A stretch of 64,000 bases of DNA, taken from the NCBI GenBank assembly GCA_963727805.1, contig CAVSHF010000003.1:1120001-1184000 (forward strand), read 5' to 3'. Shown one piece after another: positions 6,260-54,359 of the stretch (positions are counted from its first letter, which is position 1; the number at the start of each line of letters is the position of its first letter). The stretch is from an uncultured Nitrospiraceae bacterium. GTDB taxonomy: Bacteria; Nitrospirota; Thermodesulfovibrionia; Thermodesulfovibrionales; Dissulfurispiraceae. A program made the translations under genes and the position numbers. The notes beneath the pieces were generated by a model that ran no database searches, was not told where the DNA came from, and saw only the letters and a list, made by a program, of their open reading frames with translations.

Positions 6260-8094
6260 GTCGAGTGGCGCGAGGGAATCTCACCCTCACGCTCTCCCAG
6301 ATCCGGACGTGACAGTCTCCCGTCATCCGGCTCCTATCATCCAGCCTAAGGTTGAAACCCAGCAATCCAATGGGCGAACAGAGAAGGCTGTCGACAGGCT
6401 ATCTGTCTCAACCATATTGTCGCCCTCCGGTTATTGGATTTAAACCATTTGTATTTCCTTTGCATGCATCGGACTAGAATACTATTGAAAGTTTTGAAGA
6501 TCGGGTACAGTGCAGATTTGTAGTACTGACCATAGTAGTTGATCCAACCCCGAAGGACTGGATTACAGAAACGTGAAAGCTCTTCAAGGCTCTTGTCACT
6601 GCGCCGGTGAATGAACCAACTCCTCATGACTCCACGAATTGCACTGGACGCCTTATTACTCACAGCTGGGCTGAAGTTCACAAAGTAATTTCCAGACCGA
6701 CTCTTTGATCTCCGGGGTCGAAAAGTGTACCCGAGAAAATCAAAGCTCTCATTCAGGTAACTCTCTTGTCTCAATCCATCCTTACAATAGACAATCTTTG
6801 TCTTTTCAGGATGAAGCTCCAGCTTGCACTGCGTAAGCCGCCGTCCAATCTCCGTTCTGAGCCATTTGGCTTGCTTCTCACTTTTACAGTGCACAATAGC
6901 GTCGTCGGCGTAACACTCGAAAGGAATGGTTGGAAAGTTTCGTTTCATCCACTCATCAAACGCATAGTGGAGGAAAAGATTAGCGAGCAGTGGACTTGCG
7001 ACACCCCCTTGGGGAGTGCCCTTGTCACGGCTCACTCGCGTTCCGTCTTTCAATTGGGCAGGGGCCTTAAGCCATCGCTCAATGTATAACAGAATCCACT
7101 TGCATTCAGTATGCTTTCTAACAGCACGCATAACGAGGTCGTGATCCAGATTATCAAAGAACCCTTTGATGTCTAAGTCCACAACCCAGTCATAACGCCA
7201 GCATCTCTGACGTGCTACCCCTACCGCTTCAATCGCTGACTTTCCCGGCCTGTATCCATAGGAATCCTGATGAAAATGAGGCTCCACTTCAGGCTCCAGA
7301 TACATCTTAACCACCATCTGCGCAATCCGATCTCCTACCGTAGGAATACCCAGAGGCCTTATACCTCCGTTATCCTTCGGTATTTCCACGGTGCGCACCG
7401 GTGGCGGAAAGTAGCTCCCCGACGACATCCGATTCCAGAGCTTGTAGAGATTATCCTTAAGATTCCTCTCAAACTCCTCGATCGATTCCCCATCCACGCC
7501 AGCAGCACCACCATTTGCCCTTACCCGTCTAAAGGCTTCCAATACTACTTGCTTAGAAATACTAAACGGCTTTGCCTTACTCAATAGCTCCTCCCAACAA
7601 ATGGTTGACTATTCAATAAAGCTGGACGATGTAGCCCCTTTGCTCCGGTCCCATTACGAACCTTCATCGCTACTGCTGGCTACTCCGCCTCTGTGCTCCG
7701 CATCGGTACTCTCATTCTCATGGGGCCACCACTTGAACTTCTCCCTTAGCATCGGAGCGACAGTTTCCCACGTTCCACACAAGAGCCTGGATCAGCTTCA
7801 TGCCGCCTTTATGCCGGACGCCGTTCAGGCAGTAAACAGGTATCTCCTGAACTAATCCTGATGTAAAATAAGATACATCAGTTTTGACGTCGTCCTTTAC
7901 CTTTCGACACCTCATCAGCGGTTCGCTTGTGCTCATCTCTCTGATCCTTACCTGACACGATCTTGTCGTGCCTTTTCCTTAACGCTCACCACACTGGCTC
8001 TTTAGCAGTGCAGCTTAAGGTGGTTTGAAGCCTGCTCCTGTAAACCGGCTTCGAGGGGCCAGCCCTCATCTTCTTGTGCAGCCTCGTGGCGCAC
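6260..8094 (-). mobile_element. Group II intron, RmInt1-like (IIB / bacterial class D), full length
   Basis: 5' GTGCG at 8094; domain V/VI GAGCCGGATGACGGGAGACTGTCACGTCCGGATC...CGCCACTCGAC ending AC at 6260; internal RT ORF; EBS1/IBS1 complementarity. Confidence 0.92.
6346..7584 (-). CDS. ltrA: Group II intron reverse transcriptase/maturase (no endonuclease domain)
   Basis: GAAGVDG, RPLGIPTVGDR, DLDIKGFFD, GTPQGG, YADD, LRGWINYY; N-terminus resembles the RmInt1 protein. Confidence 0.95.
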   Translation of the reverse strand: MSKAKPFSISKQVVLEAFRRVRANGGAAGVDGESIEEFERNLKDNLYKLWNRMSSGSYFPPPVRTVEIPKDNGGIRPLGIPTVGDRIAQMVVKMYLEPEVEPHFHQDSYGYRPGKSAIEAVGVARQRCWRYDWVVDLDIKGFFDNLDHDLVMRAVRKHTECKWILLYIERWLKAPAQLKDGTRVSRDKGTPQGGVASPLLANLFLHYAFDEWMKRNFPTIPFECYADDAIVHCKSEKQAKWLRTEIGRRLTQCKLELHPEKTKIVYCKDGLRQESYLNESFDFLGYTFRPRRSKSRSGNYFVNFSPAVSNKASSAIRGVMRSWFIHRRSDKSLEELSRFCNPVLRGWINYYGQYYKSALYPIFKTFNSILVRCMQRKYKWFKSNNRRATIWLRQIACRQPSLFAHWIAGFQP

Positions 8095-32160: not shown

Positions 32161-32215
32161 GATTCACAATCTTTCATAATCTCTTCGCAGCCTGTTCACA
32201 ATTATTTGGTACTCT
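32161..32215 (+). promoter_or_regulatory. Direct-repeat regulator box (TTCAYAAT x3-4) with -10-like hexamer, copy 1
   Basis: GATTCACAATCTTTCATAATCTCTTCGCAGCCTGTTCACAATTATTTGGTACTCT; 45/51 identical to the reverse complement of 51074-51124. Confidence 0.7.
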
Positions 32216-32389
32216 ATAGCTAAGAACAAAAGATATTTTAGGAAAAAACACCATGAGGGTGAGTCTAAAAAAAAGGGAGGAGATGAAGATTATGTAACGT
32301 CGTCATATCTCACAGGAAATTTGGTATGCCATCTGCTATGATGCAACGATAGCGATATATTGCAGCTTACTTTTTGCGAGGAGGTTTAT

Positions 32390-48896: not shown

Positions 48897-49487
48897 ATGA
48901 ACTCCGGTGAAATGAAGGCATGGGAGCTTTTAAAGTCACTCGATCCTGTCGAGGTTTGCAGGCGTGCCGGTGCATCTTTCAATCCGGCTGCCCTGGAGTA
49001 TTCAATTCACTCGTTTAACAGTGATTTCCATCTATTTCTGACCGAGCAGAAAATAACGGGTGATGATCTTTTCCTTAAACGGTTAGGCTATTTTTTCGGG
49101 CTCTCGGCCCTCTCTTATCTAATTTCTTCAAGAGATATTCCGCCGACAGGCCGTCTCATAAAACCTTCTGATATCAAAGGTGGACAACTCTTCTTCAGGG
49201 GATCACATGTGCTGCCACTCGATAAGCTCGCCGCTAAGTATGGCGACGGCACAGAGGATTTTCAGCACAAAGGATCGGAACTTGGGGCTGAAGTTGCTCC
49301 TTATGGAGACGTCGCTCTAAAACTTCTTCCTTTTGCAAGGATCCCGGTCTATCTTCTCTTGTGGAAACAGGATGAGGAATTCCCGGCGCGTGCCGACCTT
49401 CTTTTTGATTCATCCTGCGCGATGCAGGCGCCCCTGGATATCCTCTGGTCCATCGCCATGATGACGGTCCTGGCGATGATGATGTAA
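48897..49487 (+). CDS. DUF3786-family protein
   Basis: GG.LFF, YGD, P.ARIP..LLW..DEEFPARADLLFD. Confidence 0.8.
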   Translation: MNSGEMKAWELLKSLDPVEVCRRAGASFNPAALEYSIHSFNSDFHLFLTEQKITGDDLFLKRLGYFFGLSALSYLISSRDIPPTGRLIKPSDIKGGQLFFRGSHVLPLDKLAAKYGDGTEDFQHKGSELGAEVAPYGDVALKLLPFARIPVYLLLWKQDEEFPARADLLFDSSCAMQAPLDILWSIAMMTVLAMMM

Positions 49488-49498
49488 TGGGCACTTAG

Positions 49499-49837
49499 TT
49501 AATACATTGATCTTATTCTTCCCGTCCGTTTGTCGATGATTACCTTGTCGACAAGGATACCGCGCCTATCTCTCATATCGGCCTCGAAAAAAAGCTCTCT
49601 TTCCCTTATGTCGCCTATCTTTACATCCCTCCTAGAATAAGAGTCCTTTAGCAATCTCCTGGCCTCCTGACTATTTGATACCGCCTTTCTTTGCCCATAG
49701 CCACGACCTGATTGCCCGTAATGATAGTAGCCGTAATGCCTATCGCCCGCGTAGGCAGCGGGAATCCAAAAAGAGATGGAAATAACAACAAACAACCCCA
49801 ACGTTATGCAGGCATTCACGAAAGATTTTAGGCTCAT
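49499..49837 (-). CDS. Small secreted protein, PepSY-like C-terminus
   Basis: Signal peptide; G/Y-rich linker; FFEAD...VDKVIIDKRTGRIRSMY. Confidence 0.7.
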   Translation of the reverse strand: MSLKSFVNACITLGLFVVISISFWIPAAYAGDRHYGYYHYGQSGRGYGQRKAVSNSQEARRLLKDSYSRRDVKIGDIRERELFFEADMRDRRGILVDKVIIDKRTGRIRSMY

Positions 49838-49900
49838 ATCATTCCCTTCCTTATCCGAAAGGATGTGAACTACTGACAACTTAACCACGGGAACGGTTGA

Positions 49901-50390
49901 ATTCACAGACACCAGCGCGCTGCAGGTTTTGCCCACAGATCATCTTGCAGTAGTCTCCTACCCGTTTAACCCGGGCCATCAATAATATAGCAAACCTTAA
50001 TGGATGTGCCATTTTATTCGGGCAGCCCCTGTCTATTTGAGACCTTTCGCTAACCTTGGCGAACGTCTGACTTAACCACATAACGAGTGAGGCATTAGTG
50101 GTCAAGCCGCAGTTATGGCAGAATAAATACTGCCTGAGTTTCCCGATTATCGGGGTGAATGTGCCCACATGGGAAACACTCCTGAGAGTGATGTCGTTCA
50201 CTCTCGCACAGTCCTGGTAACAGCTGTATCTATACATAGCTCGATGCCGTAAAAAAGTCAACGGCAACCGACTAACCCCACGTAACTTTTTGTAGGGAGG
50301 AGATTGCGACAGTAAGTTTCGATCAAAACCCACTGTTTGCCCCCCTACTGGCTTACGCCTAGCCGGGACATCCGCAACTATTAGTTCAAA
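49901..50390 (-). ncRNA. Large structured non-coding element, copy A (family not recognised)
   Basis: Two blocks ~85% identical to 53441-53713; many hairpins with G-U pairs on the minus strand; GGC-GTAA-GCC tetraloop; promoter immediately upstream. Confidence 0.65.
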
Positions 50391-50399
50391 CTCTGAAAC

Positions 50400-50428
50400 A
50401 TTATAGTCAGAATGTGGAAACGGGTCAA
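50400..50428 (-). promoter_or_regulatory. Sigma70-type promoter upstream of element A
   Basis: TTGACC (50428-50423), 17 nt, TATAAT (50405-50400); predicted start a few nt before the conserved TTTGAACTAATAG. Confidence 0.75.
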
Positions 50429-50490
50429 TCATTCTTCTTCCAAAAGCGCATGAATGGGGGAAAAGGACAGGCTACCCTTCCCCCATTCCA

Positions 50491-50760
50491 CTATTTCTTA
50501 TGACATTTTGTACAGTTGTCTGCGAGGCGAAGACTTTCGTACCGCTATGACAAGAGAAGCAGAGCTTACCGGCTTCATAGTCAACCTTGGTTATTTTCAC
50601 CGCCCCTTTCTTCATCTTGAACATATCGGCAAGGCAGTCCTTGCACACACATCCTTTAGCCGCATGCATTCCCCTGTCAAATATGCCCTTACCGGGGCTG
50701 TTATCACTGGCAAATTCCACAGGCTTCCCGGACAGCATGGCTGATGCATTCCCGATCAGT
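50491..50760 (-). pseudogene. c7-type triheme cytochrome c pseudogene
   Basis: H..KG..CKDCL (heme His lost), CFSCH intact, third motif DNCTKCHKK* in a shifted frame; no signal peptide. Confidence 0.7.
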
Positions 50761-50767
50761 GTTTCGT

Positions 50768-51007
50768 CTAGCACCCCTCAACAGCCTTTTTCTTGATGAT
50801 CTTACCGTCTTTGACCATAACTTTGTCGCCAACCTTGAATCCCTTAGCGTCTCCCTCAACAGTCGTTTCCTTGCCATCAGCAGCCTTAACGGTAATCTTG
50901 GTCCCCTCGATCTTACTGATCGCTCCCTTCACATCAGCAGCGAAACTGATCCCTGCAACTGCGACAGTGACGACGATCGCCACCAATACTACGAAAATCT
51001 TCTTCAT
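50768..51007 (-). CDS. Small secreted OB-fold-like protein with C-terminal EGC (ExtJ-like)
   Basis: Signal peptide MKKIFVV...SFA, KG.ISKIEG.KITV, KVGD.V, KKKAVEGC*. Confidence 0.7.
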   Translation of the reverse strand: MKKIFVVLVAIVVTVAVAGISFAADVKGAISKIEGTKITVKAADGKETTVEGDAKGFKVGDKVMVKDGKIIKKKAVEGC

Positions 51008-51073
51008 CCCTTTCACCTTCCTTCACAATTCTGTCTAAGACCAGCTTAGTGATTTTTGTTTCTGATTAAAGGA

Positions 51074-51124
51074 TACCAAATAATTGTGAACCCGCAGCGA
51101 AGAGATTATGAATAATTATGAATC
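51074..51124 (-). promoter_or_regulatory. Direct-repeat regulator box (TTCAYAAT x3-4), copy 2
   Basis: Minus strand GATTCATAATTATTCATAATCTCTTCGCTGCGGGTTCACAATTATTTGGTA followed by TCCT. Confidence 0.7.
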
Positions 51125-51183
51125 CACGTAGAGACAATGAGGTGCACATAAGCAGAGGTGAATTCTCCTTTTCTCTGATAACA

Positions 51184-52530
51184 TCAATGAGGAAACATTA
51201 ACGTGAAGACAGAGCCTTTTCCGAATTCGCTCCATACCGATATCACCCCACCGTGAGCCTCCGTCAGCTCTTTTACGATGGTTAGGCCGATGCCAAGGCC
51301 ACCTTTTAAGCCCCGATAGAACCTCTCGAAAATAAAGGGGAAATCCTCATCTCTGATGCCGCTCCCGCTGTCACCAACCTCGATGACCGTTCCGGAAGGG
51401 CTGTCAAAGGCCTTAATCCATGCATTGCCTCCCCTTTCCGTAGCCTTGAGAGCATTCGACAAAAGATTAATTATGACCTGACTCAGCCGGTCGGGATCAC
51501 CATTTATCGTAAGCCCTGCATCACAGGTCAGCTCCAGCTTGACACCCTTTTCTTCAAACAGCCTGCCGAAACGGCCCCAGATACCTTCCAGGAATGGCTT
51601 AAGAATGAAAACGCTTTTTCGGAGATAGCGGCTACTCGCCTCAGCTTGGCTAAGCTCCTCTATGCCTTCGATAATCTTGTTTAATCTGCCGATTTCCGAA
51701 TACAATGACTGGAGATTTTCTTTATCAAAAGGGATGAGGCCGTCCATCATACCCTCCAGTTCGCCGCGGATTGCACTTATGGGTGTTCTGAGCTCATGTG
51801 CGATGTTCGAGGTAAGTTTTCTTCTTAACGATTCCTGAACCTCGAGGGATTGTGCCATGCGATTGAATGAATCGGCAAGAGTGGCTATTTCGTCTCTGCC
51901 GGCAATGCTGACACGGCTTTTAAGATTGCCGGCACTGATCTCCATAGCCGCCTGTGTGAGCCCCTTTATAGGATTAGTCAATCTTCTCGAAACGACAATG
52001 CTAAGGATGATTGCGATGCCGCCTAGTGCAACCAATGATAGCAGAAGCAGCTCATCGGACCGAGCGATAAAGACCCCAGACTTTCGGGGCCTTAATAAGC
52101 CCACTTCAATATGCCCGATCTGTTCGCCCCCCAAAAATAATGGATAAGGCATGAATTTCTCGTCTGTCCTTCGTGCGTCAAAATCGGACAGTGCGATGAC
52201 CCTATTTAGAACTGCCTCAGGCTGGGCGGTGATGGCAGTTTCAGTATCCATTACAATGTCGCCTCTAATATCGTAAAGCTTGATATCGAAGCCGAGCATC
52301 ACCGCCCACAGCATATTTTCGACAATGTCCTTCTTGACCCATCCCTCATTTTTATCGTACGAACTCTCCAAGGCTGCCGTAATCCAATAGATTCGGTCTT
52401 CCCTTTCGCCTTCTAGATATTCCCCGAAATCGTTGAGCATCAGTTCCCTGAGAAGGAATGCTGCAGAAAGTGCAATAAGAGAGACAGTGACAAGCAGTAG
52501 AAGAAACTTAAGCCAGAGGCTCTTAAACAT
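51184..52530 (-). CDS. HAMP-domain sensor histidine kinase (BaeS-like)
   Basis: Two TMs, HAMP (DEI..LA.SFN.MA), AHELRTP H-box, NLLSNA N-box, D.GSGI, FERFYR, GLGIGL. Confidence 0.95.
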   Translation of the reverse strand: MFKSLWLKFLLLLVTVSLIALSAAFLLRELMLNDFGEYLEGEREDRIYWITAALESSYDKNEGWVKKDIVENMLWAVMLGFDIKLYDIRGDIVMDTETAITAQPEAVLNRVIALSDFDARRTDEKFMPYPLFLGGEQIGHIEVGLLRPRKSGVFIARSDELLLLSLVALGGIAIILSIVVSRRLTNPIKGLTQAAMEISAGNLKSRVSIAGRDEIATLADSFNRMAQSLEVQESLRRKLTSNIAHELRTPISAIRGELEGMMDGLIPFDKENLQSLYSEIGRLNKIIEGIEELSQAEASSRYLRKSVFILKPFLEGIWGRFGRLFEEKGVKLELTCDAGLTINGDPDRLSQVIINLLSNALKATERGGNAWIKAFDSPSGTVIEVGDSGSGIRDEDFPFIFERFYRGLKGGLGIGLTIVKELTEAHGGVISVWSEFGKGSVFTLMFPH

Positions 52531-53224
52531 CCTTTTTGCCGGAAAAACGGTACCCCACTCCGTAAATGGTAAGTATGTATTCCGGATTTCTCGGGTCTTT
52601 CTCTATTTTATGCCGTATATTCTTGATGTGTGCATCGATGCTCCTCTCGTACCCTTCAAACTGGTAGCCAAGGGCCTTTTCGACCAGTTCCTCGCGCGTA
52701 AAGACCCTGCCCGGATGCATAGCAAGAGTATGGAGCACCTTGAATTCGGTCGGAGTAACGTTTATCTGGTCTTCCGCTTTCCTGACTTCATAACTCTGCC
52801 CATCGATTATCAGAGCACCTTTATTAAAGCTGACTGGCGCCGCGTGTTCGAGGTCCCCTTTTTGCTGTCGCCTCAATACCGCCTTGATCCGGTATACTAA
52901 CTCCCTCGGGCTGAATGGTTTCACAACGTAGTCATCGGCACCAAGCGCGAAACCCGCTACCCTCTCCTCTTCAGAAGCCTTGGCGGTGAGCATGATAATA
53001 GGAAAGTCTCCGATGTGCCTTAACTCCTGGCATACCTCCTCCCCGCTGGTGTCAGGCAACATAAGATCTAAGACGGCAAGAAGTGGTTTTTCCTTCAGCG
53101 CCGCTTCTATCGCATCCTTTCCTTTGTCCGCATGAACAACGCGGTATCCTGCTCCTTCGAGGTAGACCTTTACGACTTTGGCAATCTTGCTGTCGTCTTC
53201 GATGATAAGAATGGGTTGGTTCAT
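52523..53224 (-). CDS. OmpR-family response regulator
   Basis: IIEDD, LDLMLP, MLTA, DDYVVKPFS, wHTH (TPTEF...IDAHIKNIRHK...YGVGY). Confidence 0.95.
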   Translation of the reverse strand: MNQPILIIEDDSKIAKVVKVYLEGAGYRVVHADKGKDAIEAALKEKPLLAVLDLMLPDTSGEEVCQELRHIGDFPIIMLTAKASEEERVAGFALGADDYVVKPFSPRELVYRIKAVLRRQQKGDLEHAAPVSFNKGALIIDGQSYEVRKAEDQINVTPTEFKVLHTLAMHPGRVFTREELVEKALGYQFEGYERSIDAHIKNIRHKIEKDPRNPEYILTIYGVGYRFSGKKDV

Positions 53225-53289
53225 AATTAATGTCTATTATATTGCACGGAGAAGAAAGTATTTTCAACTCCATTATATGTTATGATCGA

Positions 53290-53713
53290 CAATTGACGGC
53301 GACAGACTCAGTCTAGATCAGGAGCGCCCCAATATCATGGGGGAAGATAATCGCTAGAAAGACCACCCCGTATCTTGTCACAGTGGCATTTATTGAACTG
53401 CTCACCACGTAACTGCAGGAACGTATGTAGGAGTTCCGCGATTCACAGACACTAGCGCGCTGCAGGCATTTGCCCACAGCACGTCTTGTGGTAGTCTCCT
53501 GCCCTTTCGAAGTGACATGGCTCACTGTTTCATAGTCGTGGCAACAGCCGTATTTATATATAGCTCCATGCCGGGGAAAGTCAACAGCAACCAACCAACG
53601 ACACCTAACTTTTTGTAGGAAGGAGAATGAGACAGTAAGTTTCTATCAAAACCCACTGCTTGCCCCCTTCTGGCTTACGCCTAGCCGGGGGCATCCGCAA
53701 CTATTAGTTCAAA
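53290..53713 (-). ncRNA. Large structured non-coding element, copy B
   Basis: 53441-53504 and 53531-53713 match copy A; nested pairings suggest extension to ~53290. Confidence 0.6.
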
Positions 53714-53927
53714 AAGGTCATGTGGAATTCAGTATGACACACCGACAAGCGTATTTGATAAATACGGGGATCATTGTTGCACATTAGGCTGCGCTTAGCA
53801 CTTGGCTCTGCATCACCGATATGCCCGCTGCTCGACTCGCTCAAGGTGCTGGACAATGCGGTTACTATATTCTTTTATGCAACGGTAAGTCTTTGGTGTT
53901 CACGTTATTCTGTATATACTTTAACAC

Positions 53928-54359
53928 ATGGTAAACAAGCATGAAATCGCGTACCTGAGGCTTGCCCACGGCTGTTTTAATCTCACGATAGTGCTTTTTT
54001 TCATCTTCCAGGCATGGCTCGGATTACAAATAAGAAAAAAGAGAAAAGCAAAGCAATCTCCTCCATTTTCGATGATAAGAATACACAGAAAAATTGGTCC
54101 TGTTCTGATTCCGGCAGCAGTGCTCGGCTTTCTTTCCGGATGGGCCCTTATTTATTCTGATGTTGGATATTTGTTCAAATATCCTCTTCATTCGATTACA
54201 GGATCAGTCATCGCGCTGCTCCTGCTAGTCACGTATCCGGTTTCCAGATCAATAAGGGCAGGTGAGTCACTGTGGCGAGAACGTCATTACTGGCTTGGGT
54301 TATTTATAATGTGTCTGTATGGTATCCAGGCATTCCTTGGAATAGGGATACTGTTTTAA
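53928..54359 (+). CDS. DUF4079 / cytochrome b561-like membrane protein
   Basis: Four TMs, each with a His (AHG, IHR, LHS, RHY). Confidence 0.75.
   Translation: MVNKHEIAYLRLAHGCFNLTIVLFFIFQAWLGLQIRKKRKAKQSPPFSMIRIHRKIGPVLIPAAVLGFLSGWALIYSDVGYLFKYPLHSITGSVIALLLLVTYPVSRSIRAGESLWRERHYWLGLFIMCLYGIQAFLGIGILF

Follow-up and report, generated by a model that had tools for sequence, protein, structure and literature searches.

Copy A, the element at positions 50389-49865 on the minus strand of the 64,000-nt window (the whole stretch of DNA that was analysed), is very probably a non-autonomous, internally deleted IS200/IS605 element of the PATE-like kind, carrying a degraded omegaRNA and left over from a transposon that had tnpB and a Y1 TnpA. 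An earlier note on the same DNA had described it as a new, ornate RNA of about 500 nt with its own promoter. The 5′ "junction" of that RNA is largely the DNA left-end hairpin of an insertion sequence (IS), and its hairpin-rich middle is tnpB coding sequence. Among the origins listed in the note, our results favour the OMEGA-type non-autonomous derivative, here an IS200/IS605-tnpB deletion derivative with degraded omegaRNA; an IS110 bridge RNA, also listed, does not agree with the finding that all full-length homologues found sit in tnpB elements.

Extent and Parts of Copy A

Copy A is 525 nt long, 36 nt longer than first called: it does not stop at 49901 but extends to a TTCAC at 49865. It is composed, in order, of a TTGA(AC) motif, a left-end hairpin, a 143-nt leader-like stretch, tnpB codons, an omegaRNA scaffold and a right end in TTCAC, all on the minus strand. 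The TTGAAC target/TAM motif with the left boundary lies at 50384..50389, the cut site falling after TTGA, TTGAA or TTGAAC (±2 nt). TTGAAC or a one-base variant starts 27 of the 28 listed left-end rows, some of which are duplicates, with unrelated sequence upstream (L092 reads ATGAAC). The adjoining IS200/IS605 left end (50331..50383) is a subterminal imperfect hairpin recognised by its homology to the left ends of L061, a full element with tnpA and tnpB (77% over 61 nt), and of L065 (75%); by analogy with the family, it would be the DNA site of a Y1 TnpA.

Downstream of the 143-nt stretch, decayed tnpB zinc-finger codons (50091..50187), identified by protein and nucleotide identity to TnpB, read SQEC..CGHIHPDNRETQAVF, a frameshift and then CHNCGLTT. 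In the parent gene the same segment is a conserved multi-hairpin RNA, and in copy A a 12-nt deletion within it takes out the RuvC-III Asp motif. Next come shortened post-RuvC-III codons (50045..50090), with several internal deletions in the profile alignment, and the codons of the TnpB C-terminal tail (49901..50044), which double as the core of the omegaRNA (reRNA) scaffold and show 67-74% nucleotide identity to intact elements. The right end (49865..49900) keeps an upper hairpin and the terminal TTCAC, by homology to intact right ends, and has lost 15 nt with the hairpin foot and the lower 5′ arm. The host flank at 49849..49864 (minus strand) equals the empty-site sequence and, by analogy with the reRNA described in PMC8612924, would be the 16-nt guide of the copy A omegaRNA.

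Copy A has no tnpA. Of tnpB, about the first three quarters are gone, RuvC-I and RuvC-II among them, as is the RuvC-III Asp. No intact tnpA or tnpB lies inside it, only frameshifts, stops and deletions. No terminal inverted repeats of at least 25 nt with arms at both ends were found, and on inspection the two flanks differ, that is, there is no target duplication. The earlier statement that copy A shares no reading frame with the related copy B is right as far as intact ORFs go; decayed tnpB codons, however, are recognisable in A, in B and in a third copy, C. A 183-aa ORF that runs across copy A (50432-49881) was rejected as a gene; it has no NCBIfam or Pfam match and is closed in B and C.

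Relation to Intact TnpB Elements

The DNA search of 41 genomes returned matches in three, the organism's own (G000) included. In one of them, G010, the middle of copy A is matched by a repeated element present at least 14 times, and this element (L011) encodes a 489-aa RNA-guided TnpB (NF040570, 209 bits). Translated, copy A 50187-50125 is identical to the zinc finger of the L011 TnpB at 18 of 21 residues (E 2e-7 in the window). A protein search found 725 TnpB relatives at E ≤ 1e-30; the profile made from the best 120 of these 725 and the TnpB of G004 (proteins of >300 aa, a few partial ones having been dropped by the length filter) matches copy A at E 1e-10. Another relative, TnpB P0017, aligns through the C-terminal tail of copy A, with 53% identity over residues 471-500.

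At the DNA level, an alignment of 16 close TnpB proteins was used to retrieve 80 metagenome loci, and copy A 50187-50091 is 76-85% identical in nucleotides to the zinc-finger codons of the close intact clade. A profile built from 19 selected close loci matches copies A, B and C with E-values of 1.5e-47, 1.2e-18 and 3.7e-49, respectively. The 3′ 323 nt of copy A and both ends map in order onto intact elements (nhmmer E 7.8e-12 for the left end and 5e-4 for the right end); the match to an IS end that the earlier note had named as evidence against novelty is thus found on both sides. In answer to the same note's question about the neighbours of homologues, all full-length ones found are part of tnpB elements. 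Since L061 has this left end together with a tnpB and a divergent Y1 tnpA, the family belongs in IS200/IS605. Among 14 G010 loci, 13 right ends were found, and all 13 finish in TTCAC followed by unrelated flank. Sixteen loci from a contig scan overlap in sequence with known elements and were excluded as independent cases.

The intact IS605-type parent clade, made up of L061, the solo-tnpB loci L062-L069 and the G010 copies, has the same left and right ends as copy A. Its TnpB P0017 carries the Pfam domains PF12323, PF01385 and PF07282, and the tnpB pieces retained in copy A are 67-85% identical to the clade in nucleotides.

The 143-nt Stretch and Known RNA Families

The stretch between the left end and the tnpB codons (50188..50330, minus strand) is common to copies A, B and C. 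It has no BLAST match to intact elements; its best nhmmer match is L065 (E 0.12), and comparison with the leaders of L064 and L065 gave z 1.8-3.5, among 144 comparisons. One strong hairpin in it is retained by both A and B. It also has a −35-like GTTGACTTT at 50261-50256, and by eye a similar leader motif is present in two remnants of G003 (L164 and L172). These faint likenesses hint that the stretch may be a second decayed left end plus a tnpB leader. Two other origins were rejected. As tnpB RuvC-I/N-terminal codons ("VGFDRN", "GRQVLLT"), the stretch had tblastn E-values from 9e-4 to 0.85 over 121 queries, no profile support and ORF alignments at background; as a piece of tnpA, its alignment was also at background.

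A stretch with no firm origin, together with three related copies and the lack of an Rfam match, is what a new class of large independent ncRNA could offer in its favour. Rfam gave no match on the element, either at the gathering score over the whole window or at E ≤ 10 over 49500-54200, where two chance matches at E ~10 both fall outside it. This agrees with the earlier report that the RNA matched no RNase P, tmRNA, SRP, intron or riboswitch. However, about 380 of the 525 nt are accounted for by IS ends and tnpB, the promoter is a host one and the enclosing helices do not form (both are treated below), and a class-wide search of 300 other genomes, which scored two candidates per genome and also missed copy C, did not detect the 5′ domain. 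A new class is, in our judgement, extremely improbable. ARAGORN found nothing on the element and only a tRNA-Pro elsewhere. A group II intron (RF01999 and RF00029) occupies 6260-8067 of the window (minus strand), with a reverse-transcriptase/maturase ORF at 7584-6346.

Insertion Site and Host Promoter

The gene downstream of copy A (49499..49837, minus strand; 112 aa) has matches in 27 of the 41 genomes searched, its own counted, and its product has no Pfam or NCBIfam match above the cut-off. The TTGACC-N17-TATAAT reported earlier is present at 50428-50400 (minus strand), outside copy A, as a sigma-70-type promoter matching at 11 of 12 positions. It is the best of nine promoter-like sites in 49300-54200, a number to be read against the 7.1 ± 3.5 such sites of shuffled sequence. 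It had been taken as the RNA's own; judging from the orthologous loci, it is the promoter of the host gene, since two relatives without the element, G012 (L052) and G008 (L054), keep TTGACC-N17-TATAAT immediately 5′ of the orthologous gene.

Ten relative loci were examined at the orthologous site: one ends with its contig, two differ upstream and seven are syntenic up to a cytochrome gene. Copy A is missing from all seven, five of them from the same genus (G002, G003, G004, G005 and G007) and two from the same family (G008 and G012). At the five element-free loci of the same genus, the −10 box stands about 30-45 nt 5′ of the start codon (39 nt in G004), and the window minus copy A would give 41-43 nt. 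Taken together, the empty sites and this spacing indicate that copy A landed in the 5′ leader of the 49837 gene. Reads aligned at the site gave no joint spanning copy A, and among the loci compared there was no very close empty site that fixes the junction to the base.

From what is general in the family, a Y1 TnpA acting in trans would have pasted copy A as single-stranded DNA beside a TTGA(A) motif, about 14 nt 3′ of the −10 box of the host gene. Copy A would now probably form 525 nt of passively transcribed 5′ leader in front of that gene. One of the 21 listed sequencing runs contained over half of the sequence words, and a single RNA run is among the 21; contigs from the RNA run, which come from related organisms, cover the neighbouring genes, and inside copy A they give short, loose-ended zinc-finger matches that read on as intact tnpB.

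On the other side of copy A, the c7-type cytochrome gene (window 50774-50472, minus strand) looks decayed when compared with its orthologues: the N-terminal leader is absent, the His is missing from one CxxCH, and the last heme motif has shifted out of frame. Such decay next door suggests relaxed selection at the locus. Two copies of a 71-nt motif, 80% identical, are found at 32161-32231 (plus strand) and 51054-51124 (minus strand); the copy upstream of an ExtJ-like gene is conserved in relatives and is probably a promoter or binding site belonging to the two-component regulator next to it.

Folding and Covariation

Compared with shuffled sequence, copy A folds at z −4.2 and copy B at z −3.7, and in copy A the signal sits in the zinc-finger tnpB segment (z −4.1; −0.2 to −2.0 in the other segments). 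Several helices drawn in the earlier note do form. The local hairpins TGTCCC/GGGGCA and CAGTGGGTTTT/GAAACTTACTG have pairing probabilities of 0.92-0.99 in both A and B, and GTTGCG/CGCAAT pairs in A (0.63-0.93) but is lost in B, which reads CTCATT (0.0). The long-range helices said to enclose the middle do not: TATAGATACAGC/GCTGGTGTCTGTG reaches 0.067 and GAGCTA/TAGTTC 0.000. The same is true, in copy A, of GTAGG/CCTGC (0.001) and CTGCA/TGTGG (0.03), which had been read as pairings conserved between the copies.

One alternative is exaptation: copy A would serve the 49837 gene as a structured 5′ leader or attenuator, and copy B would do the same for a two-component operon. The place of copy A between promoter and start codon and its overall fold would suit such a role, as would the location of A, B and C, all three of which are in intergenic DNA. 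Nevertheless, the folding signal lies in an inherited tnpB segment, copy A is missing from every one of the seven informative syntenic relatives, and the decayed cytochrome neighbour speaks of relaxed selection. At the B locus, the five relatives that have the response-regulator gene (six loci were fetched) show no element signal beside it, and their upstream DNA is non-homologous. We consider exaptation very unlikely.

Covariation was counted at both ends of the family. In the left-end hairpin, 3 of 12 pairs show two-sided compensatory changes among 18 sequences. The 3′ scaffold has two-sided changes at 14 of 30 pairs and 88% of cells paired in 19 related rows, a count inflated both by the kinship of the rows and by the hand-drawn model, which was based on L069. 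None of 500 shuffles does as well, and slid controls stand at 36-44%. The RNAalifold consensus of the 3′ region has a covariation term of 0.08 and does not use the family's terminal stem. This covariation belongs to the transposon ends and the omegaRNA of the parent. Copy A itself keeps 6 of the 14 pairs of the terminal stem, as does C, and B keeps 9, while intact rows have 12-14. In the right-end stem of copy A, 1 of 6 and 0 of 3 lower pairs survive and 5 of 5 upper ones; its 5′ helices keep 4/6, 5/7, 3/4, 4/4 and 5/7 pairs, and copy B has lost the 5′ helices of the scaffold.

The hairpins of copy A may be understood as former needs of the parent: DNA end hairpins for TnpA, and for TnpB a long omegaRNA laid over the last tnpB codons. 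Both predict strand-specific G-U/G-T pairing, which is therefore expected.

Related Copies and Present Activity

Copy B (53393..53712, minus strand) is, from its homology to A and the profile, the same element with a further deletion of about 220 nt and a terminal TTCAA. The A/B homology described earlier is borne out over two blocks, 50390-50187 against 53713-53511 (172/205, 84%) and 49966-49901 against 53507-53441 (57/67, 85%). In DNA run X4, two contigs link the right part of B to an A-like middle sequence, by low-depth joints with sides of 66 and 34 nt. Copy C (G000:C3:1237864-1238405) carries an expanded TA repeat and has lost its left tip. The three copies are 82-85% identical to one another, and their shared ancestor would already have been without most of tnpB when it was copied to at least three sites, after which the copies drifted.

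More decayed traces are scattered over the genome, with right-end-only and left-end-only pieces at G000 C5:658101-658400, C3:897829, C3:719604, C5:1024884, C3:819541 and C3:2335981. Altogether, six left-end sites and seven right-end sites with TTCAC-like ends, in varied states of decay, were found there, and G003 has ten matches with differing deletions. L009 (G000:C5:658k) and L003 (G003:C2:684k) are family remnants at or near the same flanking genes that kept different pieces; this may reflect one old insertion common to both genomes or repeated use of a site.

The machinery that would act on copy A is equally eroded. One left end of the family, at G000:C3:1725191-1725638, stands beside a split Y1 tnpA with 73% identity to the TnpA of L061, and neither a tnpB nor a right end was seen beside it. 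A cognate TnpB was not found in the genome with NF040570, L011 and P0017 as queries, which returned only remnants and TnpBs of other clades; the best matches to P0017 are remnants or reach 35% over 82 aa. Guide targets of A, B and C next to TTGA, TTGAA or TTGAAC numbered 0 each in the genome (≤1 seed and ≤4 total mismatches). With its lower right-end stem deleted and the cognate tnpA split, copy A does not appear to be mobile at present. The half-deleted stem and the split tnpA, together with the lack of a cognate TnpB and of a guide target, make it most likely that copy A is inert today. What speaks against inertness is that the genome holds other, intact Y1 TnpAs, with 40% and 27% identity to the cognate type, as well as two open ORFs for TnpB-like proteins of other clades (513 and 515 aa, near G000:C3 305934 and 2164148).

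In a third related TnpB-like copy, near C3:2011700, unrelated sequence breaks in after the first zinc-finger cysteines. An IS200-like tnpA is also present in three identical copies (G000:C4:21836, C5:32290 and C5:421392), two of them flanked by another repeated element.

These observations bear on the alternative that copy A is a stand-alone omegaRNA cassette, transcribed from the host promoter into an RNA that a TnpB processes and uses in trans. Copy A lies on the same strand right behind a strong promoter and keeps the span from zinc finger to TTCAC (323 nt) with most 5′ helices, and use in trans has been proposed for the omegaRNAs of PATEs (PMC10055086). On the other hand, the terminal stem, which in ISDra2 is bound by the WED domain of TnpB (PMC10097598), is half deleted in copy A, and the genome yielded neither the cognate TnpB nor a TAM-adjacent guide target. 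We give such a cassette very little chance, and the reading of copy A as a degraded deletion derivative is retained.

A Long omegaRNA Candidate in the Parent Clade

The zinc-finger codons that fold so strongly in copy A also do so in intact parents (z −5.8 and −3.6), although not in L067, which has an insertion (z +0.3). Over 16 rows, 96% of cells are paired in the multi-hairpin junction that this region forms, and 5 of 28 pairs have two-sided changes; the model comes from RNAalifold and so leans towards the data, and 4 of 500 shuffles reach its measure of two-sided change. The zinc-finger pattern was matched by 55 of the 80 loci, 53 of them scorable, all of them kin and including near-duplicates. 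Against resampling of synonymous codons, their zinc-finger windows have a mean z of −2.1, with 47 of 53 below −1 and two loci positive; control windows from upstream have a mean z of −0.56, and 58 of 153 fall below −1. The multi-hairpin RNA is found at 50187-50091 of the window (minus strand) and in loci L060-L138.

At the 47 of 80 loci with a placeable right end, many with weak E-values, the junction starts 324-412 nt before that end; in copy A the distance is 323 nt. The modelled structure suggests that the junction is possibly the 5′ domain of a long omegaRNA in this TnpB clade. That the zinc-finger codons of the clade carry a dual-coded structure seems to us about as likely as not; with this structure as its 5′ domain, the omegaRNA of the clade may be unusually long, at about 330-410 nt. 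According to PMC10278001, processed omegaRNAs range from 79 to 466 nt, and 324-412 nt falls inside this range. A more ambitious claim is that the RNA of copy A is still functional from the captured host promoter, as a TnpB-processing signal, a decoy or an exapted leader, which would be the reason why copy A kept almost exactly the span from junction to right end. We find this claim very unlikely.

Comparison with Known Systems and Significance

IS200/IS605 elements have subterminal palindromic ends; the 3′ end of tnpB together with the right end gives rise to their reRNA, and the flank supplies a guide of about 16 nt (PMC8612924). Elements without genes often encode omegaRNAs and rely on proteins in trans (PMC10055086). 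The PATEs of Haloquadratum originate through internal deletion, and C-terminal tnpB codons may persist in them in disrupted form, as in HqIRS71 (PMC3119063), and the PATE-like elements of Geobacillus stearothermophilus bear an omegaRNA and have TTCAC as a documented end motif (PMC10055086). Copy A resembles the elements described in these two sources in that it has no intact gene, subterminal hairpins at both ends and no terminal inverted repeats, and likewise in its short left target motif, right-end TTCAC, origin by internal deletion with broken C-terminal tnpB codons left in place, and heterogeneous copies. Unlike the PATEs described there, it belongs to another TnpB clade and host, is larger (525 nt), low in copy number and old, has a damaged right-end stem and contains a 143-nt stretch of uncertain origin.

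The same holds for its RNA. As in the omegaRNA of ISDra2 and its orthologues (PMC8612924, PMC10097598, PMC10278001), the tnpB 3′ end and the right end are overlapped, the guide would come from the flank and a terminal stem-loop lies within about 10 nt of the end. In contrast with ISDra2, whose core is 116 nt, structure in this clade seems to extend back as far as the zinc-finger codons (324-412 nt), and in copy A the scaffold is degraded and no cognate nuclease was found.

By itself copy A matters little, as one more gene-less IS200/IS605 remnant. It does show how such remnants can mimic large ornate RNAs with an "own" promoter in scans of a single genome. The folding of the zinc-finger codons is of modest value to the study of TnpB: if these codons belong to the omegaRNA of the clade or act as a signal for its processing, recoding or truncating them would matter when the nucleases of the clade are tested, and the long-omegaRNA reading predicts where the 5′ end of the omegaRNA should lie.
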